Virus record (IMG/VR): IMGVR_UViG_3300027710_001079
Coordinates: 128,833 to 192,832 of that record
Strand: one strand, 5' to 3'
DNA: 64,000 bases
Origin: a virus
Taxonomy: Duplodnaviria; Heunggongvirae; Uroviricota; Caudoviricetes
Shown here piece after piece: positions 15,311-25,570 of this stretch. A program made the translations under genes and the position numbers. The notes beneath the pieces were generated by a model that was not told the origin of the DNA, ran no database searches, and was given only the letters and a program-made list of their open reading frames with translations. Each line of letters begins with the position of its first letter. Position 1 is the stretch's first letter.

Positions 15311-16081
15311 TTATTTAAGTAACCACTTGAATAAAGTACAAGGGTCATACTCCCAATATTTACCACTAACCCCAGAACCAAAATCAAATGACTTTGGATC
15401 TTTATGGTGATTGTTATGCCATCCTTGGCCCCATGCAAAAATTCCTAAAATAGGAACATTAGTTGACAGGTCTTTTAACTCGAAATTTCTATACCCGGCG
15501 GCAGGAGTATGGCCAAATAAATCTACTAGATTTTCTTGGTGTTGTGCTATGGTCATTGCAATAACAAATCCATATAAGGCTGCTTGCCAGGAAATCAATC
15601 CAACAACTAGCAATGTAATCCAAATGATTTTATTGTAGTGTTTATGTATGAATAAATGAAATGGATCTCTTAACAAGTCAACAGCGTATTTCAAGTTAAC
15701 ATCGGTGGGCTTTAACTTGAATATCCAGCCCATATAGGCACTCCACTTGCCGTGTATAGGGCTGTGGAAATCTTTAACTGTGTCAGCCGATGCATGATGA
15801 TATCCTCTATGCAATGCTACCCAAAATATAGGGCTTCCTTGACATCCAAACATACCTAACACAGCTAATACTTTTTTCTTCCACGGTACAACTGCTAAAG
15901 CATTATGACTTATAATTCTGTGATAGCCAACAGCGATTCCCAGGCCACTAAACAGTGTCCAAAAGATAAAACTGCTCCATAGCCAAATCCAGTCATGCAG
16001 TACAAACATAGTCGTAACTGCTAGAACAAATAGAATATGTATTGGAATAGTAATACTTTTTACATGTTGACTTGTAAACAT
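15311..16081 (-). CDS. membrane fatty-acid (acyl-lipid/acyl-CoA) desaturase
   Basis: Three histidine boxes: HRIISH, HRGYHH, HNNHH. Hydrophobic segments between them. Confidence 0.7.
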   Translation of the reverse strand: MFTSQHVKSITIPIHILFVLAVTTMFVLHDWIWLWSSFIFWTLFSGLGIAVGYHRIISHNALAVVPWKKKVLAVLGMFGCQGSPIFWVALHRGYHHASADTVKDFHSPIHGKWSAYMGWIFKLKPTDVNLKYAVDLLRDPFHLFIHKHYNKIIWITLLVVGLISWQAALYGFVIAMTIAQHQENLVDLFGHTPAAGYRNFELKDLSTNVPILGIFAWGQGWHNNHHKDPKSFDFGSGVSGKYWEYDPCTLFKWLLK

Positions 16082-16090
16082 AATTTATTT

Positions 16091-16687
16091 TTATAAACCT
16101 GCTATTGGTGGTCTGTATTTTTGTTGCAATATGTGATGTCGTACCAGCATGTCTTGCGGCCATACTGCACCTTTCATTAATACAGAATCAAACTCTTTAT
16201 ATTTAGATCTTGTCAGTGCAGGAATTACATGATCAAAATTAATATCATAATGCTTTCTTTCAGGCACTAGATTTCCCCAAATTCGTTCGTGGGATTTTAC
16301 ATATTTTAATGGAATACTACTGTAGTATTCAAACAGCATTTTTTGCTCTGCAAAATTAATTGCATGACTCATTAGTGATGCTATACCTTTCATGGGAATA
16401 GAGGTTACTGCCGTTGCATCATTAACTACTTTTTGTAGATACCAGACTGGTCGACTAGAACTTAATTGCATAATTAAGTAACTTAGTAGGTTATCATTTT
16501 CAAAATATCCCCAGCATAAGTGATCTTCTATATTGTGATCCAATAAAGTATATACAAAGTATGCTTCATTCTTATCCCAGAAATTTATTTTACCTACTTG
16601 ATCGGGAGTTACACCTGCGTGTCTTTCGTGTGAAAGCGTTAATCTTTCGACTAAACTAACATGCTCTAGACCCAGAAGTGTAATCAT
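16091..16687 (-). CDS. hypothetical protein
   Basis: ORF-track 198 aa. Confidence 0.4.
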   Translation of the reverse strand: MITLLGLEHVSLVERLTLSHERHAGVTPDQVGKINFWDKNEAYFVYTLLDHNIEDHLCWGYFENDNLLSYLIMQLSSSRPVWYLQKVVNDATAVTSIPMKGIASLMSHAINFAEQKMLFEYYSSIPLKYVKSHERIWGNLVPERKHYDINFDHVIPALTRSKYKEFDSVLMKGAVWPQDMLVRHHILQQKYRPPIAGL

Positions 16688-16690
16688 GTT

Positions 16691-16918
16691 TCAATAATGT
16701 TCGCTCTTTTTAGGAGGCTTACGAAGTTTTTCCAAATAATTACGACCTACTTTACCTGCTTCAATTTCTCGAAGTGCAGTAACGTTAAATCCGTTATTAC
16801 AAGTAACCATAGGCATATGCCCACGCTTTAGTTCTCTTGCACGAATTGATGCAATTAGTACTAGATCAAAACGATTACCAACCATCTCTACTGCTGCCTG
16901 TGACGTTAAACGTGCCAT
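16691..16918 (-). CDS. rpoZ: DNA-directed RNA polymerase omega subunit homolog
   Basis: [33 protein letters not shown] aligns closely with E. coli RpoZ [33 protein letters not shown]. Confidence 0.7.
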   Translation of the reverse strand: [75 protein letters not shown]

Positions 16919-16951
16919 GTGTTTCCTTGAAGTTAAAGTTAAAATTAAACA

Positions 16952-17065
16952 GGTTCTCTTTTTTACGTGCTACCACTACACCAACGTGAAGACCAACTCA
17001 CGCCTAGGATTCGAACCTAGCCCCTCTTTTTTCAAGAAAGATTATTTTGATTGCTGAAAAGAACC
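16952..17065 (-). ncRNA. yrlA-like: Y-RNA-like tRNA mimic (YrlA-type candidate) #1
   Basis: Minus-strand order: closing stem GGTTCTTTT...AAAAGAGAACC; T arm CTAGG-TTCGAAT-CCTAG; 7-bp acceptor-like stem GCGTGAG/TTCACGT capped by loop TTGGTC instead of open ends; D arm GTGT-AGTGGTA-GCAC. No anticodon arm. Confidence 0.5.
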
Positions 17066-17231
17066 TAAAGGTCAAAACTTACCGAGTAATAAATCTTACT
17101 AGCCGCAACCAGTAATATTTAATTCCTCTAAATGCCGGGAAATCAAATTCTATAAATGATACCGGCTCTTTGGGAATATTGCCGTATGCTTTATCAAGTG
17201 TGTCTTTCGCATTCATATAACATTCCTTTGT

Positions 17232-17306
17232 TGGTGGACCGACGGGGGATCGAACCCCGACCCGAGGCTTGCAAAGCCACTGTGCTCCCATTATCACTAT
17301 CAGCCC
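17232..17306 (-). tRNA. tRNA-Ala: tRNA-Ala(TGC)
   Basis: Hand fold. G3:U70 wobble in the acceptor, anticodon loop TTTGCAA, T arm CGGGG-TTCGATC-CCCCG, CCA encoded. Confidence 0.7.
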
Positions 17307-17310
17307 AAAA

Positions 17311-17384
17311 TGGATGCGGGTGACAGATTCGAACTGCCGATGCACCTGGCTTATGAGACCGGTGTGGTGACCACCCTACCCGCG
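17311..17384 (-). tRNA. tRNA-Met: tRNA-Met(CAT), possibly initiator-like (C1:A72 mismatch)
   Basis: Hand fold. Acceptor CGCGGGT/ACCCGCA with a 1:72 mismatch, anticodon loop CTCATAA, short D arm, T loop TTCGAAT, CCA encoded. Confidence 0.6.
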
Positions 17385-17548
17385 TAATTCTTGTTGATGA
17401 TTATTTTTGTGTCAGGAAACCATCCAACCCCGTGAGAGCAGCCCATCCTGTTTTCGCTTCAGCGGATGCGGAATTTGGATACAGGTCCGCACTAAATTCG
17501 TTTACATACTACTTATCTCATTGTACTCCGTATGTAAGGGAGATTCTT

Positions 17549-17625
17549 TTGGTCGGTGTGACACGATTCGAACATGCGACCACTGCGTCCCAAACGCAGA
17601 GCTCTACCAAGCTGAGCTACACACC
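17549..17625 (-). tRNA. tRNA-Pro: tRNA-Pro(TGG)
   Basis: Hand fold. D arm GCTC-AGCTTGGTA-GAGC, anticodon stem CTGCG/CGCAG, loop TTTGGGA, T loop TTCGAAT, CCA encoded. 77 nt. Confidence 0.75.
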
Positions 17626-17632
17626 GATTATC

Positions 17633-17708
17633 CTGGTACGTCCTGACGGGCTCGAACCGCCGACAGCTGCCGTGTAAAGGCAGAACTCTACCAACTGAGT
17701 TAAGGACG
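17633..17708 (-). tRNA. tRNA-Val: tRNA-Val(TAC)
   Basis: Hand fold. D arm ACTC-AGTTGGTA-GAGT, anticodon stem CTGCC/GGCAG, loop TTTACAC, CCA encoded. Confidence 0.75.
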
Positions 17709-17778
17709 CAAAATACAACAGGCTTCGCTTTTTTTCATTTACAGTGAAATTTTTATTTGCTGAAAGAAGCCTAAAAAT

Positions 17779-17852
17779 TGGAGCGGGGTAAGAGAATCGA
17801 ACTCTCAGCATTAGCTTGGAAGGCTAAGGTATTACCACTATACGAACCCCGC
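17779..17852 (-). tRNA. tRNA-Gly: tRNA-Gly(TCC)
   Basis: Hand fold. Acceptor GCGGGGT/ACCCCGC, D arm GTAT-AGTGGTA-ATAC, anticodon stem TTAGC/GCTAA, loop CTTCCAA, CCA encoded. Confidence 0.8.
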
Positions 17853-18367
17853 ATTAAATCTATTTAGTAAAACACACTAACACCGCTGGCAAAGTAATTA
17901 CATTACTTGATACGAGTACCTAATGTGTTTTAATAAAGTGTCTAGCTACCTACACCACATAGGCCCTAAACTGAGCGGTTTACTCTGTCTCACGTTATCC
18001 CTTATGGTTGGACTATTCGTCTACCTGTGATATTTTCCGTGCTCCTGAAATGAAGCCGTGTAGTAGATCTCACGCACTAAGTTCGTCGTTATGGCAAGGA
18101 AACCACTCGCCCACTTTAATAACGGTCAAGTGTAACCGGGTTTTTAACAGGTTAATACTAGTTTAACGTCCTAGCAGACAGCCATTTTTTTATTGCCGTA
18201 ATTAACCTAAATAGGTTTTTGAGAGACTGACTATCTTTCTTAAGGACTCATCAGGTTGTCTCGAATGAAAGAGTTTATGCAGACCTTGTACAATTCTACT
18301 GGTGTGTCATGCTCAAGAATAGGGCACTAGAATACAAGGGACTCATCTCACCGTCTATCTCAAAACT

Positions 18368-18459
18368 TGGTACCCCCGGCGGGAGTCGAACCCACACTAA
18401 CCAATTATCTGTTGCATACGGGATATAAATCCGCTGTTCTACCATTAAACTACAGGGGC
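18368..18459 (-). tRNA. tRNA, long-variable-arm (type II-like) gene; anticodon loop reads TTTATAT (TAT?), assignment uncertain
   Basis: Acceptor GCCCCTG/CGGGGGT, D arm GTTT-AATGGTA-GAAC, T arm GTGGG-TTCGACT-CCCGC, CCA encoded. There is a ~20-nt variable region. The anticodon stem has an A:C mismatch. 92 nt. Confidence 0.45.
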
Positions 18460-18538
18460 ATAAAATAACAGGATCAACTTTTTATGTTTCAGTATAAATG
18501 AAATTTTTATTATGTTTGCTGAACTGATCCTAAAAACT

Positions 18539-18628
18539 TGGCGGTGCGACTGAGACTCGAACTCAGAACCCGGCTTTCACCGAGCGACGGATTAGCAATC
18601 CGCTCTAATACCATTATAGGACCGCACC
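18539..18628 (-). tRNA. tRNA-Ser: tRNA-Ser(GCT), type II
   Basis: Hand fold. 3-bp D stem, anticodon loop TTGCTAA, variable arm CTCGG-TGAAAG-CCGGG, T arm CTGAG-TTCGAGT-CTCAG, CCA encoded. 90 nt. Confidence 0.75.
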
Positions 18629-18633
18629 ATATT

Positions 18634-18709
18634 TGGCTCCCCAGCGTGGGATCGAACCACGGACACCTTGATTAACAGTCAAGTGCAACTACCGCTGTGC
18701 TACTAGGGA
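18634..18709 (-). tRNA. tRNA-Asn: tRNA-Asn(GTT)
   Basis: Hand fold. Perfect anticodon stem CTTGA/TCAAG, loop CTGTTAA, T arm CGTGG-TTCGATC-CCACG, CCA encoded. Confidence 0.75.
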
Positions 18710-18722
18710 ATATATTCTTTAC

Positions 18723-18956
18723 TTACACACTAGTACTTGCAGTACCGGTGTCATTGGTTACGTAACTAGTACCCTGTGGACGAGGTGCGTTACGATCACG
18801 TTTTTCTGATCTTGGAACAATGCTTGCTGCCACTTGAGCATCAATCATTGCATTTTTAAAACCATGACGGTCTTGTTCATTTTTAAACTTCATCAATGCT
18901 AACATTGTTTTTGTTCGTTTACTCAACTTAAAAGTTGCAGATGTTCTTGATCTCAT
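18723..18956 (-). CDS. hypothetical small basic protein within the tRNA array
   Basis: ORF-track 77 aa. Does not overlap the flanking tRNAs. Confidence 0.3.
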   Translation of the reverse strand: MRSRTSATFKLSKRTKTMLALMKFKNEQDRHGFKNAMIDAQVAASIVPRSEKRDRNAPRPQGTSYVTNDTGTASTSV

Positions 18957-18977
18957 TTTAGTCCTTAATAAAAAATT

Positions 18978-19051
18978 GGTCCGGCGTAGAGGAATCGAAC
19001 CTCTATTAAGACTTTAGAAGAATCCTGTCCTATCCATTGAACGAACGCCAG
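18978..19051 (-). tRNA. tRNA-Arg: tRNA-Arg(TCT)
   Basis: Hand fold. D arm GTTC-AATGGATA-GGAC, anticodon loop CTTCTAA, T arm AGAGG-TTCGATT-CCTCT, CCA encoded. Confidence 0.75.
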
Positions 19052-19060
19052 GTAATTGTT

Positions 19061-19144
19061 TGGTACGAGAGACGGGACTCGAACCCGTATGCCTTTCGAC
19101 GGGAGATTTTAAGTCTCCTGAGTATACCATTTCTCCACTCTCGC
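19061..19144 (-). tRNA. tRNA-Leu: tRNA-Leu(TAA), type II
   Basis: Hand fold. 3-bp D stem, anticodon stem GGAGA/TCTCC, loop CTTAAAA, long variable arm, T arm ACGGG-TTCGAGT-CCCGT, CCA encoded. 84 nt. Confidence 0.75.
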
Positions 19145-19232
19145 ATTCACCATATTAGAACACATTTAAACAGTCCTTCAACGCTAGACGCTATCTCCCC
19201 AACTAGAGGGCGGAACTGTATGTGTTTTAATA

Positions 19233-19316
19233 TGGTGCCCCAGGTCGGACTCGAACCGACACGGATTTCTCCACTGGCTTCTAAGACCAGCGTGGCTACC
19301 ATTACACCACCGGGGC
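19233..19316 (-). tRNA. tRNA-Leu: tRNA-Leu(TAG), type II
   Basis: Hand fold. Anticodon loop CTTAGAA, long variable arm, T arm GTCGG-TTCGAGT-CCGAC, CCA encoded. 84 nt. Confidence 0.7.
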
Positions 19317-19371
19317 AAAATACTGACTTAACTTTTTAATGAACAGTGCTGTGTTAACAGCGTATGTATTA

Positions 19372-19400
19372 ATTATACAGTCTATTTAACAGTGTGTCAA
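19372..19400 (-). promoter_or_regulatory. consensus sigma70 promoter inside the tRNA array
   Basis: Minus strand reads TTGACAcactgttaaatagactgTATAAT. -35 at 19395..19400, -10 at 19372..19377. Points toward the tRNA-Leu/Arg/Asn block. Confidence 0.55.
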
Positions 19401-19420
19401 TAGATATATAAAAATATTTT

Positions 19421-19495
19421 TGGAAGAGCTACGGGGAATCGAACCCCGCTTGCCTGGATGAAAACCAGATGTCCTAACCGATAGACGATAGCTCC
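19421..19495 (-). tRNA. tRNA-Glu: tRNA-Glu(TTC)
   Basis: Hand fold. D arm GTCT-ATCGGTTA-GGAC, anticodon loop TTTTCAT, T arm CGGGG-TTCGATT-CCCCG, CCA encoded. Confidence 0.7.
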
Positions 19496-19637
19496 ATAAA
19501 AAGTGTTAGGTGTGCTACTACGCTAAAAGGGAAACAGTCCTTACCAGTTACGGGGTGACCTATTACTTCCTAGACTATATCTAGGCCCTACTCCTTAGAG
19601 GATGGACGCCTTTAATCCCACCTTCCTAACTATAACT

Positions 19638-19712
19638 TGGTGGTGATGAGTAGAGTCGAACTACCACCTTGCTCCGTATGAAGGAGGTGCACTACCATTA
19701 TGCTACATCACC
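19638..19712 (-). tRNA. tRNA-Met: tRNA-Met(CAT), elongator or Ile2-type
   Basis: Hand fold. Acceptor GGTGATG/CATCACC, D arm GCAT-AATGGTA-GTGC, anticodon loop TTCATAC, T loop TTCGACT, CCA encoded. Confidence 0.7.
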
Positions 19713-19809
19713 ATATGTAAACACACTAAGGTTTATTAAGAGTTATGACTATGTCAAAGAGCTCCTGGGATACCAAACCTGATCTTTTTACAGATTTAAG
19801 TATGTTTAC

Positions 19810-19860
19810 ATATGGTAGGGGCACAGGGAATCGAACCCTGATAGACCGGATCTTTGAAGT
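19810..19860 (-). pseudogene. tRNA 3'-half fragment (T arm + acceptor 3' strand + CCA, no matching 5' half)
   Basis: CAGGG-TTCGATT-CCCTG-TGCCCCT-A-CCA is present. No D arm or complementary acceptor 5' strand lies upstream. Confidence 0.4.
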
Positions 19861-19891
19861 CTTAGATTTTATTTGCTGAGTTTAGCAATAA

Positions 19892-20371
19892 TCATTTGTC
19901 TTTTAATCTGTCCCAAGCACGATCCTGAGTTTGTTGTGCCTTGCGGGCGTATGCTGGATCTTTATCTGCTTGTTTACTTGTTACTCTATCTGCGGCACGA
20001 TTGTGGACCTTGCCTAACTGCTTCTGACCTTTAGCAGTATCACCGTATTCTTCTAAAGAGCCTTCTGATACACCTTGCTCTTTATCCTTCTTTGCTTTTT
20101 CTATTGCGTCCCATTCGGCTCCGGTCTTTTCACCTCGTTTTTTCTTTACAGGAGGTTTAGATGAACGAACACCAGTGTGTTGATTTATATAATCACCGCT
20201 TGGAGTTTTGGTCCAGCCCTCTGCTACTTCTTCGCTTTGGGCATTTTCAATAAGGTTGATATAATCGCGGATAGATTTGTTTGTCATAGTGTAGTATTTA
20301 TGCTTCACGCTTCCAAAATCTAAAAGATTCCGCGAGTTTTTCGCGGATGTATTCTTCTGTTTCGGTATCAC
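19892..20371 (-). CDS. hypothetical Lys/Glu-rich protein
   Basis: ORF-track 159 aa. Low-complexity charged C-terminus. Confidence 0.4.
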   Translation of the reverse strand: MIPKQKNTSAKNSRNLLDFGSVKHKYYTMTNKSIRDYINLIENAQSEEVAEGWTKTPSGDYINQHTGVRSSKPPVKKKRGEKTGAEWDAIEKAKKDKEQGVSEGSLEEYGDTAKGQKQLGKVHNRAADRVTSKQADKDPAYARKAQQTQDRAWDRLKDK

Positions 20372-20443
20372 AAGATGCTAACTCACTATCCACCAAATCG
20401 TGAATTTTTGTCCATAATTCGTTGTATAGGTCTTGTTCATTCA

Positions 20444-21019
20444 TTACTTAACTCCTAACAATCGTTTAGCTCTTGAATAGTTATTACCCTTTGCCGCAAT
20501 ACCTGCCTTAAGCAAACCTTGCCTGATATTATCAGTTTCTTTTAGGCATTGTAGTAAGAACTCATCCGAGACTTCATTTACTCCATTCCTAGATGGTTTG
20601 TTTCTTCCTCGCCAAGTATCAGTAATACTATGGCAGTTCGGACACAATCCTTCTAAGTTTTCTCTACTATTATTAGTAGTGTTGCCATCTTTGTGTTCTA
20701 GTTCAAGCGGAATCTTAAACCCCTGCCATTCACTTACACCGCATCTATTACAGCAATGATTTTGTTCTTCAAACACCCTGCGGCGTCTGTTTTCAGAACC
20801 CAACTCGGCAAACGGTGTAGCATTGTATTTGTCTAATCGTGCTTGCCTAATGTTTGCTTTCCATTGTTCTGGATTTGCCCTAACTGCTGTTCGTCCTGCC
20901 AACTTAGCAGAACGACTTTCATTTATATCTTTACTCCACTCTCTGCTATTGGCACAAGAGCGTGAGCAGTATAAGCCTGCTTTTTCGTGTTCTTTGTTAC
21001 ACTTAGGACATTGTTTCAT
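20444..21019 (-). CDS. HNH homing endonuclease
   Basis: Zinc-finger-like CPKC...CSRSC pair, then ELEHKDGN...NLEGLCPNCH HNH motif. Embedded in the tRNA array. Confidence 0.7.
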   Translation of the reverse strand: MKQCPKCNKEHEKAGLYCSRSCANSREWSKDINESRSAKLAGRTAVRANPEQWKANIRQARLDKYNATPFAELGSENRRRRVFEEQNHCCNRCGVSEWQGFKIPLELEHKDGNTTNNSRENLEGLCPNCHSITDTWRGRNKPSRNGVNEVSDEFLLQCLKETDNIRQGLLKAGIAAKGNNYSRAKRLLGVK

Positions 21020-21156
21020 ATCGTACCTTGTTAAAATATAAAAGTATTTATCTAAGTACGATATAAAACAACATTCTAATGGTGAGGGTGTAGGGTACTG
21101 ACCCCTATTTTACGAGTTAAAAGCTCGTTACTTCACCTTAAAGTTTCACCCCCATA

Positions 21157-21231
21157 TGGTCCCTCCGCTGAGAATTGAACTCAGTCTTCTCGGATTAAGA
21201 GTCCGGTATGCTACCGTAACATCTCGAAGGG
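21157..21231 (-). tRNA. tRNA-Lys: tRNA-Lys(CTT)
   Basis: Hand fold. Acceptor CCCTTCG/CGGAGGG, D arm ATGT-TACGGTA-GCAT, anticodon loop CTCTTAA, T loop TTCAATT, CCA encoded. Confidence 0.6.
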
Positions 21232-21339
21232 ATGGATCGTAAGAATTGTCTTTTACGTGCCATCCAGGACCATACGGGGGTCTAGGATGACACTAACGTT
21301 TACCTGAACGTTTCATGTCGTTCTCCTTTTAAATAAAAT

Positions 21340-21414
21340 TGGCGGTACCAGGGGGTAACGATCCCCCTCCTCAGCAGTGACAGTGCTGTGTGCGTCCATG
21401 AACACCTTGGAACC
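21340..21414 (-). tRNA. tRNA-Asp: tRNA-Asp(GTC)-like with non-canonical T loop (ATCGTTA)
   Basis: Acceptor GGTTCCA/TGGTACC, D arm GTGT-TCATGGAC-GCAC, perfect anticodon stem CAGCA/TGCTG, loop CTGTCAC, CCA encoded. The T loop deviates from TTCRANN and may be degenerate. Confidence 0.45.
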
Positions 21415-21419
21415 TAAAT

Positions 21420-21506
21420 TGGTGGAGACGACTGGAGTCGAACCAGTAGTGCCTTTCGGGCGGCGGATTTACAGTCCACTGGGGTTACCAATTTTCCTAC
21501 ATCTCC
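21420..21506 (-). tRNA. tRNA-Tyr: tRNA-Tyr(GTA), type II
   Basis: Hand fold. Anticodon stem GTGGA/TCCGC, loop CTGTAAA, variable arm CGCCCGAAAGGC, T arm ACTGG-TTCGACT-CCAGT, CCA encoded. 87 nt. Confidence 0.7.
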
Positions 21507-21628
21507 ATTAATTGAATCCTCTACACTATATGCCTATCCTCAACAGCTTTACTCGAGATTACTGTTTATTGAATAAGTTACATAACGTATGATCAAACCT
21601 CTGTGCTTGCAGAGGATTCAATTAATGG
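21505..21628. repeat. perfect 18-bp inverted repeat bracketing the tRNA-Tyr/tRNA-Ile spacer
   Basis: ccattaattgaatcctct at 21505..21522 is the exact reverse complement of agaggattcaattaatgg at 21611..21628. The arms overlap the 5' end of tRNA-Tyr and the CCA end of tRNA-Ile. Confidence 0.75.
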
Positions 21629-21700
21629 TACCCGAAGCAAGATTTGAACTTGCGACCAACGGCTTATCAAGCCGCTGCTCTACCACTGAGCTATCCGGGT
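21626..21700 (-). tRNA. tRNA-Ile: tRNA-Ile(GAT)
   Basis: Hand fold. D arm GCTC-AGTGGTA-GAGC, anticodon loop TTGATAA, T arm GCAAG-TTCAAAT-CTTGC, CCA encoded. Confidence 0.8.
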
Positions 21701-21832
21701 AAACTTTTGATTTAACTTTTTAAAGAACGTTTGTTAATTTCTTAACATGTGTATATTATAGCAAAGTTTTGCCACTTTGTCAAGTTCTTTTTGTGTTGTA
21801 TTTTTACAACATATTTGGCACCCGTTACGGAT

Positions 21833-22486
21833 TTAAACCTTTATAATTCTGCCCTTACTCCACCCATTTGGAATATCATCAGACTTTTTAATTTTTTTAT
21901 TTTCTATGCCGTTAGTAATCCACATAGTTCCAAACTGTGAGCCTTTTTCACCTTTACCTCTCCCAGTTCTTTGCCATGTTAATTTCTTCTTAGCAATTGC
22001 CTCTGGAGAATTAGCTACTGACAACGCAGTCCAGTAATTTGGATTTTTTACAGAAGAGTTTCCAAGTTTACCTAATTGGCTCCGTTCTTCAGGAGTTAAT
22101 TGTGCCATTCTTGATTTTCCGCCCTTCGATGACTCGTTAGGAGTTAACTTAAAATTTTTACTATGCTTATTGATATAATCAAATCCGCCGTAGCCTCCTC
22201 GTCTTTTATTGTAAACATCTGTTCTTAATAAAAATTCTTCGTTTACAATTTCTTTTTCTCGATTAAACATAGACTCTGAAGTATCGAATGTTTCTAATAT
22301 TCTTTTGGAAAAATTTTCAATTCCGAACTCTTTATATGCTTTATGAAGTTCTGAACCAGACCCCATATAACCGTCATCCATATTTTTAGTTTTATGGACT
22401 CCAACATAAATCATATTGTTTATGTTGTTTCTAATTTCGTACAAATAGTAGTATCTCATAAAACTATTTATACTTTGTGTGGGCAA
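21833..22486 (-). CDS. GIY-YIG homing endonuclease
   Basis: N-terminal YYLYEIRN...MIYVGV GIY-YIG motif, then RRGGYGG. Embedded in the tRNA array. Confidence 0.65.
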   Translation of the reverse strand: MPTQSINSFMRYYYLYEIRNNINNMIYVGVHKTKNMDDGYMGSGSELHKAYKEFGIENFSKRILETFDTSESMFNREKEIVNEEFLLRTDVYNKRRGGYGGFDYINKHSKNFKLTPNESSKGGKSRMAQLTPEERSQLGKLGNSSVKNPNYWTALSVANSPEAIAKKKLTWQRTGRGKGEKGSQFGTMWITNGIENKKIKKSDDIPNGWSKGRIIKV

Positions 22487-22568
22487 GTGTGGAATCGAAC
22501 CACCTAGTCTCTCATGTTCGAAAGGGCCTAGAATTTCTTAAGAGTGCGAAACCATTTCGCGTCATGCC
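22478..22568 (-). tRNA. irregular tRNA-like gene (D arm and T arm present; acceptor and anticodon arm imperfect)
   Basis: D arm GCGA-AATGGTT-TCGC and T arm GGTGG-TTCGATT-CCACA in canonical order. The acceptor pairs at only 5/7 positions and no clean 5-7-5 anticodon arm is found. Possible pseudo-tRNA or intron-bearing tRNA. Confidence 0.3.
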
Positions 22569-22574
22569 TATAAT

Positions 22575-22649
22575 TGGTAGTTCCTACTGGGATCGAACCA
22601 GTGACCTTCACAATGTCAATGTGATATTCTACCGCTGAAATAAGGAACT
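22575..22649 (-). tRNA. tRNA-Val: tRNA-Val(GAC)
   Basis: Hand fold. Perfect acceptor AGTTCCT/AGGAACT, perfect anticodon stem TCACA/TGTGA, loop TTGACAT, T arm CACTGG-TTCGATC-CCAGT, CCA encoded. Confidence 0.8.
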
Positions 22650-22655
22650 GTTGTT

Positions 22656-22774
22656 TGGTGGTGACCCCTGGATTCGAACCAGGATCTCGTCCTTATGAAT
22701 GGAATGAAGTAGTTGCTGTATTGTATCCTTGCCAGGATCGCTTTCTACGTGTGCTACCGTTACACCAAGTCACC
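22656..22774 (-). tRNA. 119-nt tRNA with a ~45-nt insertion between D arm and T arm (possible intron or giant variable region)
   Basis: Acceptor GGTGACT/GGTCACC, D arm GTGT-AACGGTA-GCAC, T arm CCTGG-TTCGAAT-CCAGG, CCA encoded. The intervening 66 nt cannot be folded into a single anticodon arm plus normal variable loop. Confidence 0.4.
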
Positions 22775-22775
22775 G

Positions 22776-22853
22776 TGGTACCCTAGGTCGGATTCGAACC
22801 GACACGATTCTCCTTTTGAGAGAGACGCCTCATTCCAATTGGGCTACTAGGGC
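22776..22853 (-). tRNA. tRNA (anticodon loop CTCAAAA, CAA = Leu by anticodon, but short variable arm)
   Basis: Acceptor GCCCTAG/CTAGGGT, 3-bp D stem with long D loop, anticodon stem TCTCT/GGAGA, T arm GTCGG-TTCGAAT-CCGAC, CCA encoded. Confidence 0.5.
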
Positions 22854-22861
22854 ATAAAAAT

Positions 22862-22935
22862 TGGTGCGGGGTAGGAGAATCGAACTCCTGCTTAAACGTT
22901 GGCAACGTCTGGTTCTACCATTTAACTAACCACGC
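22862..22935 (-). tRNA. tRNA-Gly: tRNA-Gly(GCC), second copy
   Basis: Hand fold. Anticodon stem AGACG/CGTTT, loop TTGCCAA, T arm AGGAG-TTCGATT-CTCCT, CCA encoded. Confidence 0.7.
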
Positions 22936-22941
22936 ATTATT

Positions 22942-23019
22942 TGGAATCTGGGGTGAGATTTGAACTCACGGTTTTACGGATTTGCAATCCATTGCATTGG
23001 GCCACTCTGCCACCCAGAC
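22942..23019 (-). tRNA. tRNA-Cys: tRNA-Cys(GCA)
   Basis: Hand fold. Anticodon stem ATGGA/TCCGT, loop TTGCAAA, T arm GTGAG-TTCAAAT-CTCAC, CCA encoded. Confidence 0.7.
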
Positions 23020-23030
23020 ATAATAAAACA

Positions 23031-23144
23031 GGATACTTTTTTTCGATGGCTTGTAAGCCATTGCTCTACCATTGAGCGAATCATTCCATCAGGAATAATG
23101 TTGGAATCGAACCAACGTGTCGTTAGACATTGCTGTAAGTATCC
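23031..23144 (-). ncRNA. yrlA-like: Y-RNA-like tRNA mimic (YrlA-type candidate) #2
   Basis: Minus-strand order: 8-bp closing stem GGATACTT/AAGTATCC; T arm GTTGG-TTCGATT-CCAAC; 7-bp acceptor-like stem ATTATTC/GAATGAT capped by loop CTGATG; D arm GCTC-AATGGTA-GAGC; extra hairpin ATGGC-TTACAA-GCCAT where the anticodon arm would be. Same permuted architecture as element #1. Confidence 0.5.
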
Positions 23145-23150
23145 TTAAAC

Positions 23151-23224
23151 TGGCACTCCCCTAGGGACTCGAACCCCAACGAACGGTTTTGGAGACCGCT
23201 ATGCTGCCATTACATCAGAGAAGT
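23151..23224 (-). tRNA. tRNA-Trp: tRNA-Trp(CCA)
   Basis: Hand fold. Acceptor ACTTCTC/GGGGAGT, D arm ATGT-AATGGCA-GCAT, anticodon loop CTCCAAA, T loop TTCGAGT, CCA encoded. Confidence 0.7.
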
Positions 23225-23229
23225 AAATT

Positions 23230-23314
23230 TGGTGGAAAGCAGAGGAGTCGAACCCCACCCGCCTCTTCAGCAGGACCTAGTTTTCAAGACTAGTCGGGGT
23301 ACCAACACCCCTGC
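23230..23314 (-). tRNA. tRNA-Ser: tRNA-Ser(TGA), type II (acceptor register ambiguous)
   Basis: Perfect anticodon stem CTAGT/ACTAG with loop CTTGAAA, long variable region, T loop TTCGACT. Two alternative acceptor pairings exist. 85 nt. Confidence 0.45.
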
Positions 23315-23330
23315 ATTACTTTCCATAATT

Positions 23331-23406
23331 TGGTACCACAAGCTGGACTCGAACCAGCAACACAAGAATTTTCAGTCCTCTGCTCTACCATTGGAGCTAT
23401 TGTGGC
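23331..23406 (-). tRNA. tRNA-Phe: tRNA-Phe(GAA)
   Basis: Hand fold. D arm GCTC-CAATGGTA-GAGC, anticodon loop CTGAAAA, T arm GCTGG-TTCGAGT-CCAGC, CCA encoded. Confidence 0.8.
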
Positions 23407-23422
23407 AATAAAACTTATTAGG

Positions 23423-23493
23423 GGTGACTATCGGGATTTGAACCCGAACTACCAGAGTCACAGTCTAGGTTGCTACCATTACAACATAGCCAC
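23423..23493 (-). tRNA. tRNA-His: tRNA-His(GTG), CCA not encoded
   Basis: Hand fold. Acceptor GTGGCTA/TAGTCAC, discriminator C, anticodon stem CTAGA/TCTGG, loop CTGTGAC, T arm TCGGG-TTCAAAT-CCCGA. Confidence 0.65.
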
Positions 23494-23510
23494 ACCTAAT
23501 AAGTCTCAAT

Positions 23511-23585
23511 TGGTGCCTCCGTATGGAATCGAACCACAATCCCCGGTTTCGTAGACCAGTGTATTATCCATTATACTACGGAGGC
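23511..23585 (-). tRNA. tRNA-Arg: tRNA-Arg(ACG)
   Basis: Hand fold. Perfect acceptor GCCTCCG/CGGAGGC, D arm GTAT-AATGGATA-ATAC, anticodon loop CTACGAA, T loop TTCGATT, CCA encoded. Confidence 0.8.
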
Positions 23586-23596
23586 AAATTAATTAG

Positions 23597-23670
23597 TGGT
23601 CTGGGTGGCAGGAATCGAACCTGCACCTCAAGTATCCAAGACTCGTCGACTTCCACTATCCTACACCCAG
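23597..23670 (-). tRNA. tRNA-Pro: tRNA-Pro(TGG)-like, second copy
   Basis: Perfect acceptor CTGGGTG/CACCCAG, anticodon stem CGAGT/ACTTG, loop CTTGGAT, T arm GCAGG-TTCGATT-CCTGC, CCA encoded. The D stem is weak. Confidence 0.55.
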
Positions 23671-23794
23671 ATATTGAATTTGTAAGTAGTTGCGTCCCTC
23701 ATATCGCAACCATTTTCCCTTGTAATAAAGCCGGCAGGGTCAAGATACGTCACTTGGGCTTTGTCCAGATGATACTCCAACTGTATTCCGATCT

Positions 23795-23830
23795 TCCGAT
23801 CGGACGGGGATCGAACCCGCTACCTTCTAC
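23795..23830 (-). pseudogene. isolated tRNA T-arm fragment (GCGGG-TTCGATC-CCCGT) with palindromic tail TCCGATCGGA
   Basis: T-arm signature without an identifiable acceptor partner, D arm or anticodon arm in the adjacent ~125 nt. Confidence 0.3.
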
Positions 23831-23891
23831 TGTTTCAGTCCTTCGAAGAAACCTTAACAGCGTGACTCTACTTGCTGACACTTACAAAACT

Positions 23892-23966
23892 TGGTGCCCC
23901 TTGCAGGAATCGAACCCACACACCCTGATTACAAAACAGGACCTCTACCATTAAGGATAAAAGGGC
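23892..23966 (-). tRNA. tRNA-Thr: tRNA-Thr(TGT)
   Basis: Hand fold. Acceptor GCCCTTT/AAGGGGC, anticodon loop TTTGTAA, T arm GTGGG-TTCGATT-CCTGC, CCA encoded. Confidence 0.65.
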
Positions 23967-23973
23967 AAAAATA

Positions 23974-24047
23974 TGGCACCCGGACTAGGGATCGAACCTA
24001 GGCTAACAGAGTCAAAGTCTGTTGTGCTACCATTACACAATCCGGGA
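23974..24047 (-). tRNA. tRNA-Gln: tRNA-Gln(TTG) with weak 1:72 pair
   Basis: Hand fold. D arm GTGT-AATGGTA-GCAC, perfect anticodon stem ACAGA/TCTGT, loop CTTTGAC, T arm CTAGG-TTCGATC-CCTAG, CCA encoded. U1:U72. Confidence 0.7.
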
Positions 24048-24124
24048 ACAAAATAACAGGATGGTTTTTGTCGCTAGACAACCAAAAAGTTTAGCTTTAA
24101 AGTTTGCTGAACCCATCCTAAAAC

Positions 24125-24199
24125 TGGTGGAGGCCGGGGGTATCGAACCCCTCTAGACAAGATGCTTGCAAGGCAACTCCGCAGCCCTCTGCTGCCCCC
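24125..24199 (-). tRNA. tRNA-Ala: tRNA-Ala(TGC)-like, second copy (G3:U70 present; short D arm)
   Basis: Acceptor GGGGGCA/GGCCTCC with G3:U70. Anticodon stem GTTGC/GCATC with the same U:U mismatch as the first Ala copy. Loop CTTGCAA, T loop TTCGATA, CCA encoded. Confidence 0.45.
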
Positions 24200-24206
24200 A
24201 TTATAT

Positions 24207-24285
24207 TGGCTCCGTGTGTGAGGATCGAACTCACCTAATCATTGATTAACAGTCAAGTCCTTGCACCATGCTTGGATTTCACGGA
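24207..24285 (-). tRNA. tRNA-Asn: tRNA-Asn(GTT)-like, second copy
   Basis: Anticodon arm CTTGA-CTGTTAA-TCAAT is nearly identical to the first Asn copy. 3-bp D stem with long D loop, T arm GTGAG-TTCGATC-CTCAC, CCA encoded. Confidence 0.55.
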
Positions 24286-24294
24286 ATAGAAAAC

Positions 24295-24369
24295 TGGCAC
24301 CGCAGACGAGAATCGAACTCGCCTAAGTCGGATAGACAATCCGTTGCCCTCCCAGAGGACTACTGCGGT
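24295..24369 (-). tRNA. tRNA-Asp: tRNA-Asp(GTC)
   Basis: Hand fold. Perfect acceptor ACCGCAG/CTGCGGT, D arm GTCC-TCTGGGA-GGGC, anticodon loop TTGTCTA, T loop TTCGATT, CCA encoded. Confidence 0.75.
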
Positions 24370-24374
24370 ATATT

Positions 24375-24449
24375 TGGTACTCCGAACGGGTTTCGATCCC
24401 GCTTCTCCAACTTGAAAGGCTGGCGTCCTAGCCACTAGACGACCGGAGT
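24375..24449 (-). tRNA. tRNA-Glu: tRNA-Glu(TTC), second copy; T loop ATCGAAA
   Basis: Hand fold. D arm GTCT-AGTGGCTA-GGAC, anticodon stem CCAGC/GTTGG, loop CTTTCAA, CCA encoded. Confidence 0.6.
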
Positions 24450-24525
24450 ATAATTAAACAGGTTGCTTTTTTACGTTTTCAATTAAAAGTTGAATGTATT
24501 ATGTTTGCTGAACGCAACCTAAACT

Positions 24526-24599
24526 TGGTTCCTAGAACAAGAATCGAACTTGTAATGACCGGTTATCAGCCGATTGTTATACCATTTAACTATCCAGGA
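24526..24599 (-). tRNA. tRNA-Ile: tRNA-Ile(GAT), second copy
   Basis: Hand fold. D arm GTTA-AATGGTA-TAAC, anticodon stem ATCGG/CCGGT, loop CTGATAA, T arm ACAAG-TTCGATT-CTTGT, CCA encoded. Confidence 0.7.
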
Positions 24600-24604: not shown

Positions 24605-24693
24605 TGGTGAAGCGTGATAGAATCGAACTACTTGCCAGCCACCCCACTTAATAAAGGCTACCGGGTTACAGCCGGCAATGGGGAACACACTCC
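24605..24693 (-). tRNA. 89-nt type II-like tRNA, isotype unresolved (internal hairpin GCCGG-CTGTAAC-CCGGT)
   Basis: T loop TTCGATT, acceptor GGAGTGT/ACGCTTC, CCA encoded. The D-arm region is too short for a standard fold. Confidence 0.35.
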
Positions 24694-24907
24694 AATTTGT
24701 TAACACTCTCTTTCGAAAGTGCTTATTAAAACAAACTGTTACGCTATGCGTCCTATTCTGATTCAGAGTCAGTAGGTACCAATTTGTTTTAATAACTAGT
24801 ATTTTTTTATCCACATAAGGATAAGCCATCCACTAGTCCGCCCGTTCAGAACATATTTTAAGTGCGTTCCCCGGGCCTCGTTCCCGTAATCTATTGCACT
24901 TTGCGAT

Positions 24908-25069
24908 CTACGACTGCTCTTGAGCAATCTCTCGCTTTCTAACGGCTTTGCTATACACCTTTGCACGTTCAAACTTTTCAAAAATCATCTTGCGAAGATC
25001 TTCTTGGGTTAGAGTGTGTTTGAGTGTAAACTCAGCTTCTCGTTGTTTATTCTTATCTGTCTCTATCAT
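24908..25069 (-). CDS. hypothetical small protein (53 aa, below ORF-track cutoff)
   Basis: Hand translation MIETDKNKQREAEFTLKHTLTQEDLRKMIFEKFERAKVYSKAVRKREIAQEQS, starting immediately downstream of the terminator at 25081..25115. Confidence 0.25.
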   Translation of the reverse strand: MIETDKNKQREAEFTLKHTLTQEDLRKMIFEKFERAKVYSKAVRKREIAQEQS

Positions 25070-25080: not shown

Positions 25081-25115
25081 AAAAACAAAAAACCCCAGGG
25101 TTGTTAATCCTGGGG
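25081..25115 (-). terminator. rho-independent terminator
   Basis: Minus strand reads CCCCAGGATTAACAACCCTGGGG followed by TTTTTTGTTTTT. Confidence 0.7.
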
Positions 25116-25350
25116 TCCTTAGAAGTTAAAATGTAAACTTGTTACACTTTGGTCTCCTGGGACCCCGGGTAAATCTCTGGTGTGCGATCATATGACAGAC
25201 TTCCACACTCAATAGATAACCAATTGGAGGCTACAAAGCCTGCCTGTTTGGGCATCGTATTAAATTGTTGATGTCTAAAATTCGATTGCATTTTGTTTTC
25301 TCTTTAAAAACTTTCTTTACATTGACAGCACCATTACTGTCTATGTGTTA

Positions 25351-25554
25351 ATTATACAGTTATTTAGTCTTGTTGTCAACCTCTTTTTTGCCTTTTGACA
25401 AAAAAGTTTTTTAACAACCTTTCTAACTAACCTATGTCTTTATTGTACAGTTATTTAGTTCTCTTGTCAACCACTATTTTTAAAGTGGCTAAAAATTTCA
25501 CTATCTAACTTACAACCTAGTCTCTATTGTATAGTGTTTATTTAGTCTTGTCAA
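25351..25554 (-). promoter_or_regulatory. three tandem consensus-like sigma70 promoters ~90 nt apart
   Basis: On the minus strand: (1) TTGACAacaagactaaataactgTATAAT, -35 at 25374..25379, -10 at 25351..25356. (2) TTGACAagagaactaaataactgTACAAT, -35 at 25465..25470, -10 at 25442..25447. (3) TTGACAagactaaataaacactaTACAAT, -35 at 25549..25554, -10 at 25526..25531. All spacers are 17 nt. Confidence 0.6.
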
Positions 25555-25570
25555 GATCTAGTGTTGTTTT

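Follow-up and report, generated by a model that had tools for sequence, protein, structure and literature searches.

A conserved short ORF encoding all 20 amino acids and a predicted antiterminator–terminator switch upstream of a phage tRNA cluster

In an attempt to understand why three strong promoters should precede a short interval with no sizeable gene in a phage genome, it is necessary to establish what they transcribe and what lies downstream. We analyzed a 64,000-nucleotide stretch of phage DNA (hereafter, the window), in which an earlier note had described three tandem consensus promoters, a transcript of about 260 nucleotides and a strong intrinsic terminator, and had proposed an abundant sRNA or a tiny anti-host or anti-defence protein as the product, with read-through into a tRNA array. 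The results confirmed that the promoters, the short ORF and the terminator are present on the minus strand at the positions given in that note. However, the interpretation was only partly supported: the tandem promoters, the short transcript ending at an intrinsic terminator, the small ORF and the read-through into the tRNA array are all there, whereas the idea of a free-standing abundant sRNA or mini-protein gene was not supported as stated. Our analysis, which is computational only, instead suggests that the unit is the leader of the tRNA operon.

Architecture and conservation of the locus

We first examined the promoters. The three sites are located at 25526..25554 (P1, TTGACA-17-TACAAT, 11/12), 25442..25470 (P2, TTGACA-17-TACAAT, 11/12) and 25351..25379 (P3, TTGACA-17-TATAAT, 12/12), and thus have the hexamers and spacing of sigma-70-type promoters. 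At the low threshold of 9/12, the scan showed no enrichment (31 sites vs. 30.6 in shuffled sequences), but only four sites of 11/12 or better occurred in 12 kb, and three of these lay within 204 bp; we estimate that about 0.1–0.2 such sites would be expected by chance in that stretch. The spacers are also alike (ACTAAATAAC). The predicted 5′ UTR of the P3 transcript is about 53 nt and begins with a stem-loop at 25324..25341 (GACAGUAAUGGUGCUGUC), followed by an A/U-rich unstructured stretch that carries the RBS. A hairpin 0–5 nt from the predicted start was found in 51 of 51 distinct UTRs, with 37 different hairpin sequences and dG values from −6 to −17, and we infer that it is likely to be an mRNA stabilizer. 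A Shine-Dalgarno-like AAAGAG lies at 25300..25305, 8 nt before the ATG, and a GAGAAA or GGAAA motif is conserved in relatives. The earlier note considered the RBS weak, but its duplex energy (−2.9 kcal/mol) is typical of the long ORFs of this phage (median −3.1 kcal/mol).

The ORF occupies 25142..25291 and consists of 49 codons plus UAA (MQSNFRHQQFNTMPKQAGFVASNWLSIECGSLSYDRTPEIYPGSQETKV), rather than the 50 aa reported in the note, and, as the note stated, no ORF of 60 aa or more lies in the interval. The terminator, at about 25081..25120, is formed by AAGGACCCCAGG, a 9-nt loop and CCUGGGGUUUUUUGUUUUU, i.e., a 12-bp hairpin followed by U6GU5, with a dG of −18 kcal/mol and a z score of −2.9. 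Our consensus scan missed this terminator only because its loop limit was 8. The terminator motif occurs once in the window, and no second copy of the element was found there.

The regulated genes would lie immediately downstream on the same strand. The first is ORF2 (24908..25069, 53 aa), which starts 11 nt after the U-tract and is conserved in about 40 of 57 loci. It has no PHROG family and no Pfam family above the curated cutoff, with only one weak sub-threshold hit (CTK3). The first RNA gene is an unannotated tRNA-like gene at 24608..24694, which has a GUA (Tyr) anticodon loop and an encoded CCA, a weak Rfam hit and covariation in 21 loci. The tRNA array itself extends over 8975..24599, contains 37 tRNAs detected by ARAGORN plus tRNA-Lys(UUU) at 21083–21153, and covers all 20 amino acids. 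The first 17 tRNAs (24599 down to 22575) have no consensus promoter of their own: no promoter-like site of 9/12 or better lies on the minus strand between 25080 and 22964, and the next strong promoter (10/12 or better) is at 21783. However, the array has internal promoters at 21783, 19400 and elsewhere, and 18 of 57 related loci have another strong promoter within 700 nt after the terminator (39 of 57 have none), so a gate at this position would control only part of the tRNA output.

The unit is conserved in more than 150 uncultured large-phage contigs. Two or three promoters at about 59, 150 and 245 nt from the ATG were present in 56 of 57 unique loci; P2 is conserved in 56 of 57, a promoter at the P1 position is present in most related loci, and the −10 element of P3 ends 59 nt before the ATG in the window and 48–66 nt before it in relatives. 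In all 38 loci scanned, the element lies 400–900 nt upstream of a same-strand array of 13–26 tRNAs. Read-through into the tRNAs is therefore probably the regulated output, and not a side effect.

No known family accounts for the element. The peptide had no match in Pfam or PHROGs, and Rfam gave no match in the element with permissive filters (24000–26500) or at the gathering threshold (whole window). No relative was found among 50,697 phage records, either by a blastn search for distant matches with 801 bp or by a tblastn search with the peptide, i.e., no cultured phage carried it, and the closest rIIA was only 32% identical (PA5oct). A search for related loci with the upstream methyltransferase found no relatives. 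The exact peptide of the window is not on record as a called gene, and all 65 homologous protein clusters are unnamed or “hypothetical,” indicating that the ORF is called as a gene only inconsistently.

Composition of the leader peptide

We next asked whether the ORF is likely to be translated. The ATG and the open frame are kept in 125 of 125 unique sequences, whereas the other five frames carry 1.3–4.5 stops, indels are in-frame, and third codon positions are the most variable. These results argue against the reading that the ORF is incidental and that an abundant non-coding RNA, such as an sRNA or RNA decoy of 260 nt, acts in trans. This reading is favored by the stable fold of the whole transcript (z = −4.1), the covariation of several stems and the existence of attenuator-derived sRNAs such as rnTrpL (PMC6614838), but, considering also that no Rfam family matches and that the composition described below exists only in frame 0, we consider it very unlikely. 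A second role in trans for the terminated leader RNA is not excluded, but it cannot be the whole story.

The peptide of the window contains all 20 amino acids and uses 36 distinct codons. Of 122 unique homologous peptides (42–58 aa), 109 contain all 20 amino acids, whereas random 48-mers reach 2.5–3.3%, real 48-aa protein windows 2.8%, and even a uniform composition only 13%; the other frames of the same loci give 0–4 of 125. The property is also found in cluster representatives (40 of 49 at 70% identity and 12 of 20 at 50% identity). Thirteen of the 122 peptides lack one or two amino acids. Cys, Trp, His and Tyr occur exactly once in 102, 111, 99 and 100 of the 122 peptides and are absent in 3, 0, 0 and 1, respectively, although a Poisson count with a mean near 1.1 would leave about 30% of peptides with none. 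The rare residues relocate rather than disappear: Cys occupies eight different alignment columns, and Tyr is at column 36 or column 24 in perfect complementarity (47 + 9 = 56). When residues were permuted within columns, 27.4 ± 2.8 peptides contained all 20 amino acids, against 55 of 56 observed. In 110 of 154 sequences, all 20 amino acids already lie in the ∼38 codons upstream of the antiterminator described below. In the remaining 44, one or more amino acids, most often Val, occur only in the tail that overlaps it, where a stall should favor termination rather than read-through.

Codon diversity gave only modest additional evidence, because the average of 36.7 of 48 is about 1.4 SD above a uniform random draw (33.4 ± 2.3), although it is far above that of real genes (28.6). 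Matching the codons to the phage tRNAs had no power, because the array decodes nearly every codon.

These observations bear on the possibility that the locus is a stand-alone, very highly expressed early gene for an anti-host or anti-defence peptide, with hairpins that only stabilize the mRNA and a position next to the tRNAs that is genomic habit. The conserved ORF, the strong promoters and the 5′ hairpin are consistent with this reading, as is the high conservation of residues such as W24 and S-Y-D-R-T-P-E-I. However, the C-terminal 7–10 residues change reading frame among close relatives while the DNA is conserved, identity falls below 40% between groups while composition is preserved, and the drifting position of Cys is hard to reconcile with a folded or binding peptide; the conserved property of the peptide is its composition rather than its sequence. 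Nor does this reading explain the covariation between the 3′ end of the ORF and the 5′ arm of the terminator, and we consider it unlikely.

The codons for D-R-T-P-E-I correspond to an 18-mer at 25172..25189 (GAUCGYACACCRGAGAUU), which is invariant in 57 sequences except for two third-position sites. Since it is otherwise invariant even at synonymous sites, the constraint acts on nucleotides. The 18-mer forms a small hairpin just before the antiterminator, with a C-G to U-G change, and its role as an RNA polymerase pause site or as the last sensing codons is inferred. The first seven tRNAs in the window are Ile, Glu, Asp, Gln, Thr, Pro and Arg, but the idea that the 18-mer mirrors the first tRNAs of the array was rejected because tRNA order differs between loci. 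A scan of genome contigs with the 18-mer returned 41 hits, about the chance number (our estimate is about 69), of which only one also carried the terminator motif. A second small hairpin inside the ORF (25228..25241, AGGC-loop-GCCU) was predicted by RNAalifold with compensatory changes (AU to UG or GU; CG to UG or AU), and its role, possibly a pause, is likewise inferred.

Alternative RNA structures at the end of the ORF

The ORF runs into a three-tier hairpin at 25112..25166, which we interpret as an antiterminator. Its P-A stem is formed by GGGGUCC paired with GGACCCC, its P-B stem by GGAG paired with CUUC, and its apical stem-loop holds the stop codon. The same fold appears in 57 of 57 sequences (mean dG −24), and the hairpin closes fully in 89 of 94 further unique sequences, with a closing pair that is A:U, G:C or G:U and never A:C. 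Twelve of 18 pairs show compensatory changes, and the covariation score is 0.384 against 0.167 in shuffles (0 of 500 reach it), although in the key P-A stem only one of seven pairs varies. A MAFFT alignment of the whole leader analyzed with RNAalifold recovered only the terminator state, because indels mis-register the antiterminator, and we therefore relied on folding of each sequence and on a covariance-model alignment, in which a residual 1-nt mis-register explains 24 apparently unpaired cells in two P-A columns.

The 3′ arm of this hairpin (GGACCCY in the family, where it pairs with RGGGUCC) is also the 5′ arm of the terminator, with ACCCC shared in the window and ACCCY in the family, so that the two structures exclude each other. 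The terminator, in which AAGGACCCCAGG pairs with CCUGGGGUU, is 100% paired in 84 distinct sequences, but it is invariant and carries no covariation evidence, and its invariance in that larger set was imposed, at least in part, by the search pattern used. The UAA stop codon (25142..25144) lies on the 5′ strand of the apical stem, 22 nt after the start of the antiterminator and 24 nt before the GGACCCC arm. In all homologues, the stop codon lies 15–28 nt into the antiterminator (mostly 21–25), even though the 5′ arm, conserved as nucleotides, is read in three different frames.

We then examined the folding energetics, which suggest that the terminator is conditional, since in the naked RNA the competing hairpin is the minimum-energy fold. 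The nascent RNA made before the 3′ arm of the terminator carries the antiterminator in 99% of cases, and the antiterminator state is more stable than the terminator state in 53 of 57 sequences, although the gap is small (about 3 kcal/mol). With a ribosome footprint imposed at the stop codon, the terminator forms in 57 of 57 sequences, and with a ribosome stalled at codon 20, the antiterminator forms in 85%. By inspection of the alignments and folds, no segment complementary to the 5′ arm of the antiterminator, i.e., no anti-antiterminator, was seen, and an untranslated leader would consequently be fully “on.”

A model for the control of the phage tRNA operon

Based on these results, we favor, with reasonable but not high confidence, the interpretation that the element is a ribosome-mediated transcription attenuator whose leader peptide contains every amino acid and which gates the viral tRNA operon. 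In this view, if no ribosome follows the polymerase, or if the ribosome stalls anywhere in the first ∼38 codons because some aminoacyl-tRNA is scarce, the antiterminator forms first, the terminator cannot form, and the polymerase reads on into ORF2 and the tRNA genes. If translation is smooth, the ribosome would melt the 5′ arm and park at the stop codon inside the hairpin, GGACCCYAGG would be free to pair with CCUGGGGUU, and transcription would end. The phage would thus make its own tRNAs in proportion to need. Our computations establish the conservation of the element, its synteny with tRNA arrays, the all-20 composition, the covariation of the antiterminator, the mutual exclusivity of the two folds and the geometry of the stop codon. 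In contrast, promoter activity, translation of the ORF, the choice of fold by ribosome position in vivo, tRNA supply as the signal, a response of read-through to charged tRNA and pausing at the 18-mer are all inferred. The phage is known only from metagenomes, so that coupling of transcription and translation in its host is assumed, and because more tRNA does not cure amino-acid starvation, the physiological signal is a guess.

An alternative is that the two structures act as a constitutive valve or as a sensor of general translation status, setting a fixed or globally modulated ratio of leader RNA to read-through that might respond to ribosome availability, translation inhibitors or the stage of infection, with the all-20 composition as a by-product. 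The synteny, the alternative structures and the folding results are equally compatible with this reading, antibiotic-inducible attenuators of the erm and cat type also sense ribosome stalling in general, and codon diversity is not far above random. However, it does not explain why rare residues are kept at exactly one copy and relocate, or why 110 of 154 leaders pack all 20 amino acids into the ∼38 codons ahead of the antiterminator, and we consider it unlikely.

The closest known systems are the leader-peptide attenuators of amino-acid biosynthetic operons in Enterobacteria (trpL, hisL, leuL, thrL, ilvL and pheL), in which a short translated ORF and an intrinsic terminator precede the regulated genes, an antiterminator that uses the 5′ arm of the terminator is transcribed first and pre-empts it kinetically, and the ORF ends at or in the antiterminator, so that ribosome position chooses the fold. 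The arrangement predicted here corresponds in these features, but the classical leaders carry a run of codons for one cognate amino acid (or two or three), whereas here no amino acid is repeated in tandem and all 20 are present, mostly once each. Further, the downstream genes are tRNAs (plus a 53-aa ORF) rather than biosynthetic enzymes, no 1:2 anti-antiterminator is evident, the full-length antiterminator state is, in this family, as stable as or more stable than the terminator state, the element is phage-encoded with two or three tandem consensus promoters, and no sequence or Rfam similarity to the classical leaders was found. T-box riboswitches of Gram-positive aminoacyl-tRNA synthetase and amino-acid genes also couple tRNA status to a terminator/antiterminator decision, but they bind one uncharged tRNA directly through a specifier codon and the T-box bulge, need no translation and regulate protein genes. 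Here there is a conserved ORF that is predicted to be translated, neither Rfam scan detected a T-box (RF00230) or any other leader family, and sensing would go through the ribosome and cover all tRNAs. In the stalling-dependent attenuators of resistance genes (ermC, cat and mef/mel leaders; e.g., PMC4335068), a ribosome stalled in a short leader ORF remodels a downstream RNA structure and switches on the downstream genes, but they respond to a drug acting together with a specific nascent peptide. No such ligand is implied here, where the conserved feature is codon and amino-acid coverage. By analogy, tandem near-consensus sigma-70 promoters with A/T-rich upstream regions also feed stable-RNA genes in the E. 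coli rrn operons (P1-P2) and among the strong early promoters of phage T5, but rrn leaders use Nus-factor antitermination (boxA) and have no translated leader, whereas in this family the promoters would feed a translated gate first.

A more speculative possibility, which we consider doubtful but not excluded, is that the leader is a universal tRNA-shortage alarm used as counter-defence. Because its sensing window holds one codon for every amino acid, cleavage or depletion of any single host tRNA, whether by anticodon nucleases such as PrrC, RloC, PARIS AriB, retron-associated PtuAB or colicin-like enzymes or by phage-induced host RNA decay, would stall the ribosome, keep the antiterminator closed and switch on the complete replacement tRNA set of the phage. 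That would be the first described regulator of viral tRNA genes and the first attenuator tuned to the whole tRNA pool rather than to one amino acid.

Large phages often carry dozens of tRNA genes, and why they carry them and how they express them is debated, with codon-usage matching, compensation for host tRNA decay and escape from tRNA-cleaving defences as candidate explanations. Our literature searches found no description of a pan-amino-acid leader, of attenuation of tRNA operons or of any regulatory logic for such arrays. The promoters, RBS and terminator of the element are of the standard sigma-70 and intrinsic type. Short ORFs that keep exactly one copy of each rare residue while their positions drift provide a bioinformatic criterion that could uncover analogous sensors in other phages and bacteria. 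A translated gate that samples all 20 amino acids would show that the phage measures the decoding capacity of the cell and adjusts its own tRNA supply, and would extend classical attenuation from sensing one amino acid to sensing the entire tRNA pool.

Promoters, terminator and genomic context

We first examined the minus strand around the putative transcription unit, and the scan identified three sigma-70-type promoters, at 25554..25526 (TTGACA-17-TACAAT), 25470..25442 (TTGACA-17-TACAAT) and 25379..25351 (TTGACA-17-TATAAT), exactly where the earlier note had placed them. At the loose threshold of the scan, the region was not enriched in such sites (31 sites against 30.6 in shuffles). However, only four sites in 12 kb reached 11/12 or better, and three of these lay within 204 bp and shared their spacer sequence. 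The whole window holds nine perfect 12/12 TTGACA-17-TATAAT promoters, all on the minus strand (8943, 12974, 13985, 19400, 21783, 25379, 58423, 60440, and 61956), several of which have TGn-extended -10 elements and several of which lie inside the tRNA array. About 0.01 would be expected by chance according to our estimate, so this is the host-polymerase promoter class of the phage, and the nine sites form a coherent host-sigma-70 early promoter set. The terminator (AAGGACCCCAGG, a 9-nt loop, then CCUGGGGUUUUUUGUUUUU) lies at 25081-25120 and folds at -18 kcal/mol; the pattern scan missed it only because its loop limit was 8 nt. The ORF at 25142-25291 has 49 codons, rather than the 50 amino acids given in the note. 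In these respects, the observation of tandem promoters, a short frame and a strong terminator held.

The window is a piece of an uncultured large phage from a JGI lake metagenome contig. No DNA match was found in 50,697 phage records, and its rIIA is 32% identical to that of PA5oct. ARAGORN detected 37 tRNAs, and Rfam detected one more that was absent from the ARAGORN list, tRNA-Lys(UUU) at 21083-21153 (minus strand), whose anticodon loop, CUUUUAA, was read directly. With it, the array has 38 canonical tRNAs and covers all 20 amino acids. Two minus-strand ORFs with weak GIY-YIG and HNH endonuclease similarity (21833-22486 and 20444-21019) lie inside the array, and are probably homing endonucleases that split it into sub-clusters. 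A weak local Rfam tmRNA hit (24125-24199, minus strand; 16 bits, E 8e-4, matching both ends of the model) was found in a 250-nt gap between tRNA-Gln and tRNA-Asp, and may represent another non-canonical tRNA-like element. Beside the array, a 471-aa ORF (6990-8405, minus strand) matches phrog_850 “RNA-binding protein” over its full length (E 2.5e-141), and may be a Ro60/TROVE-type protein. In the region 25571-33645, a Methyltransf_24 gene ends just upstream of the distal promoter, and on the opposite strand lies a cluster encoding a glycosyltransferase, a DegT-type and a class I/II aminotransferase, and a TPP enzyme, which suggests a sugar or nucleotide-modification pathway.

We next analyzed the conservation of the element. 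Back-translated pieces of the 49-aa frame retrieved 73 related loci from IMG/VR, and a scan with the terminator motif alone retrieved at least 118 more stretches. From promoter to U-tract, the element aligns at the DNA level. In every one of the 38 loci scanned, a same-strand array of 13-26 tRNAs starts 400-900 nt downstream, and almost nothing tRNA-like lies upstream. In seven related loci (L015, L017, L047, L048, L053, L059, and L065 in our numbering), ARAGORN called permuted (two-piece) tmRNA genes, with tags such as ANANTFEYFKVPASVAFSANDADFAMAA, 1-3 kb upstream of the leader, whereas none was found in the window; the leader, tRNAs and tmRNA form a “translation island” in these phages. Two or three tandem promoters sit at about 59, 150 and 245 nt from the ATG in 56 of 57 unique loci, and 39 of 57 loci have no strong promoter in the 700 nt after the terminator. 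In the window, no promoter-like site of 9/12 or better lies on the minus strand between 25080 and 22964, and the next strong promoter (10/12 or better) is at 21783. The first 17 tRNAs would therefore depend on read-through. The unit is the head of the tRNA operon, not an isolated gene, so that the interpretation in the earlier note, an abundant sRNA or a tiny anti-host or anti-defence protein with read-through continuing into the tRNA array, was only partly supported.

The leader ORF and its amino-acid composition

To verify that the ORF is real, we compared all frames of the related sequences. The ATG and an open frame of 42-58 codons are kept in 125 of 125 unique sequences, whereas the other five frames carry 1.3-4.5 stops each. 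Indels within the first 40 codons are in-frame, and third codon positions vary most (24 of 40 sites, against 18 and 17). The Shine-Dalgarno strength (-2.9 kcal/mol) equals the median of the long ORFs of the phage (-3.1 kcal/mol), so the ribosome-binding site that the note had called weak is normal here. The peptide sequence, however, is not what is conserved. After TPEI, the peptide reads YPGSQETKV, TRVREGWDG or RRVRETVV in close relatives, and these are three frames of one conserved nucleotide string, GGGUCC-GGGAGACC. The 18 nt encoding DRTPEI are invariant even at synonymous sites, apart from CGC/CGU and CCA/CCG. The 3' third of the ORF is thus constrained as RNA. We also considered a stand-alone small protein and a pure sRNA, each of which has its difficulties; we regard the former as unlikely and the latter as very unlikely.

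The peptide in the window contains all 20 amino acids. This was also true of 55 of 57 unique peptides in the first set, and of 54 of 66 in the much more divergent second set, which was found without reference to the peptide. Overall, 109 of 122 peptides contain all 20 amino acids, ten contain 19, and three contain 18. The expected frequencies are far lower: 2.5-3.3% for random 46-48-mers with the amino-acid composition of the phage, 2.8% for real 48-residue windows of its proteins, 13% even with a uniform composition, 3-4% for random DNA of the same base composition, and 0-4 of 125 in each of the other five frames of the same DNA. When only cluster representatives were counted, 40 of 49 (70% identity), 12 of 20 (50%), and 5 of 10 (40%) contained all 20.

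The counts of the individual residues are under-dispersed. Cys, Trp, His and Tyr occur exactly once in 102, 111, 99 and 100 of 122 peptides, and are missing in 3, 0, 0 and 1, respectively, whereas a Poisson count with the same mean would leave about 30% of peptides empty. The single copies move between positions: Cys occupies eight different alignment columns, and Tyr is at column 36 in 47 sequences and at column 24 in the other 9, never both absent. Seven sequences have two Cys and none has zero, which suggests gain before loss. Permuting residues within columns gave 27.4 ± 2.8 all-20 peptides (maximum 36 of 5000 permutations), against 55 of 56 observed. This control ignores phylogeny and therefore overstates significance, but the cluster-level numbers do not have that problem. 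In 110 of 154 sequences, all 20 amino acids already lie in the ∼38 codons that end at least 9 nt before the antiterminator arm. Codon diversity is also high (36.7 distinct codons of 48, against 28.6 ± 2.6 in the genes of the phage), but because this is only about 1.4 SD above a uniform random draw, we treat it as secondary evidence.

The predicted RNA switch and neighboring elements

From the R of RGGGUCC to the Y of GGACCCY, the sequences fold into the same three-tier hairpin, consisting of P-A (7 bp), P-B (GGAG paired with CUYC), and a variable apical stem-loop that contains the stop codon. The mean dG is -24.3 kcal/mol, against -16.3 kcal/mol for the terminator hairpin alone. The fold appears in 57 of 57 sequences of the first set, and the hairpin closes fully in 89 of 94 unique sequences of the second set. 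The closing pair is A:U, G:C or G:U (38, 16 and 3 in the first set, and 31, 56 and 2 in the second), and is never A:C. On a covariance-model alignment of 84 distinct sequences, 90.7% of cells pair (77.7% in shuffles), 12 of 18 pairs show compensatory changes, and the covariation score is 0.384 against 0.167 in shuffles (0 of 500 reach it). Sliding the partner by 1-3 columns drops the score to 0.086 or less. Covariation in the decisive P-A stem is limited, however, and 24 unpaired cells in two P-A columns are a 1-nt mis-register of one subgroup. GGACCCY is also the 5' half of the terminator stem, in which GGACCCYAGG is paired with CCUGGGGUUU. That stem is 100% paired but invariant, partly by construction of the search. 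The two helices cannot coexist.

The stop codon lies 15-28 nt (mostly 21-25) after the start of the hairpin and roughly 24-35 nt before GGACCC, a distance that we derived from the hairpin lengths and stop offsets. A terminating ribosome would therefore cover P-B and the apical stem and hold the two P-A arms apart, while leaving both terminator arms free. Constrained folding agrees with this geometry. Nascent RNA made before the 3' arm of the terminator carries the antiterminator in 99% of cases, and the full leader favors the antiterminator state in 53 of 57 sequences (mean -64.7 against -61.7 kcal/mol). With the RNA held single-stranded up to 13 nt past the stop codon, the terminator forms in 57 of 57, and with a ribosome stalled at codon 20, the antiterminator forms in 85%.

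Other parts of the leader were also examined. All 51 distinct 5' UTRs begin with a hairpin 0-5 nt from the predicted start, with 37 different sequences and dG from -6 to -17, and an A/U-rich open stretch follows, which is the layout of a stabilized and well-translated mRNA. A small internal hairpin (AGGC paired with GCCU) shows compensatory changes. The invariant 18-mer can form a short hairpin just before the antiterminator, and it might be a pause site that lets the ribosome catch up, although this is merely a suggestion without evidence.

Downstream, ORF2 (24908-25069, minus strand) starts 11 nt after the U-tract and encodes a charged, helical-looking peptide of 53 aa (MIETDKNKQREAEFTLKHTL...KREIAQEQS). 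It is conserved in about 40 of 57 related loci, has no PHROG family and only a weak sub-threshold Pfam hit, and would be expressed only from read-through transcripts. It is followed by a non-coding module of about 130 nt (24780-24905, minus strand), located between ORF2 and a tRNA-like gene, which is conserved by blastn in many related loci, folds moderately well (z -2.5), and has no Rfam match. The tRNA-like gene (24608-24694, minus strand) is the first RNA gene after the putative attenuator. It is conserved but missed by ARAGORN, and Rfam gave only a 20-bit tRNA-Sec hit. It has an 8-9 bp acceptor stem with covariation, a T arm (GGUUCGAUUCC), an encoded CCA, and an anticodon-type loop, CUGUAAC (GUA, Tyr), on a 12-bp composite arm, but no canonical D arm. 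Fourteen of 24 pairs are compensatory across 21 loci.

Possible attenuation of the tRNA operon

The anatomy meets the structural criteria of a leader-peptide attenuator: a leader ORF, a terminator, a competing antiterminator, and an ORF that ends inside the antiterminator. It fails the one criterion that gives classical attenuators their specificity, a run of codons for one amino acid. In its place is one codon for each amino acid, upstream of genes for tRNAs of all 20 specificities. No match to the element was found in Rfam, in Pfam and PHROGs (for the leader peptide), in cultured phages, or in full-text literature searches, and the 65 homologous protein clusters are all unnamed or “hypothetical.” Among 185,579 reference genomes, the only hit carrying both the invariant 18-mer and the terminator motif was a 6.2-kb contig (JBBAKF010000113.1) binned as a Polynucleobacter sp. 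MAG, which is either a mis-binned phage contig or a hint that the host is Polynucleobacter, a freshwater betaproteobacterium. The class of mechanism is already known, whereas the pan-amino-acid leader, the tRNA-gene target and the phage setting are new.

Structure and composition are what our analysis shows by computation, whereas the steps from these to regulation by tRNA supply are inference, made from sequence alone and without any expression data. We consider ribosome-mediated attenuation of the tRNA operon to be more likely than not, and are somewhat less confident that tRNA supply is the specific signal. A non-specific translation-status valve, which also has its difficulties, is an unlikely alternative. 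In the most economical reading, any shortage of a decodable aminoacyl-tRNA would stall the ribosome in the sensing window, the antiterminator would persist, and the polymerase would proceed into the tRNA array, whereas smooth translation would terminate transcription.
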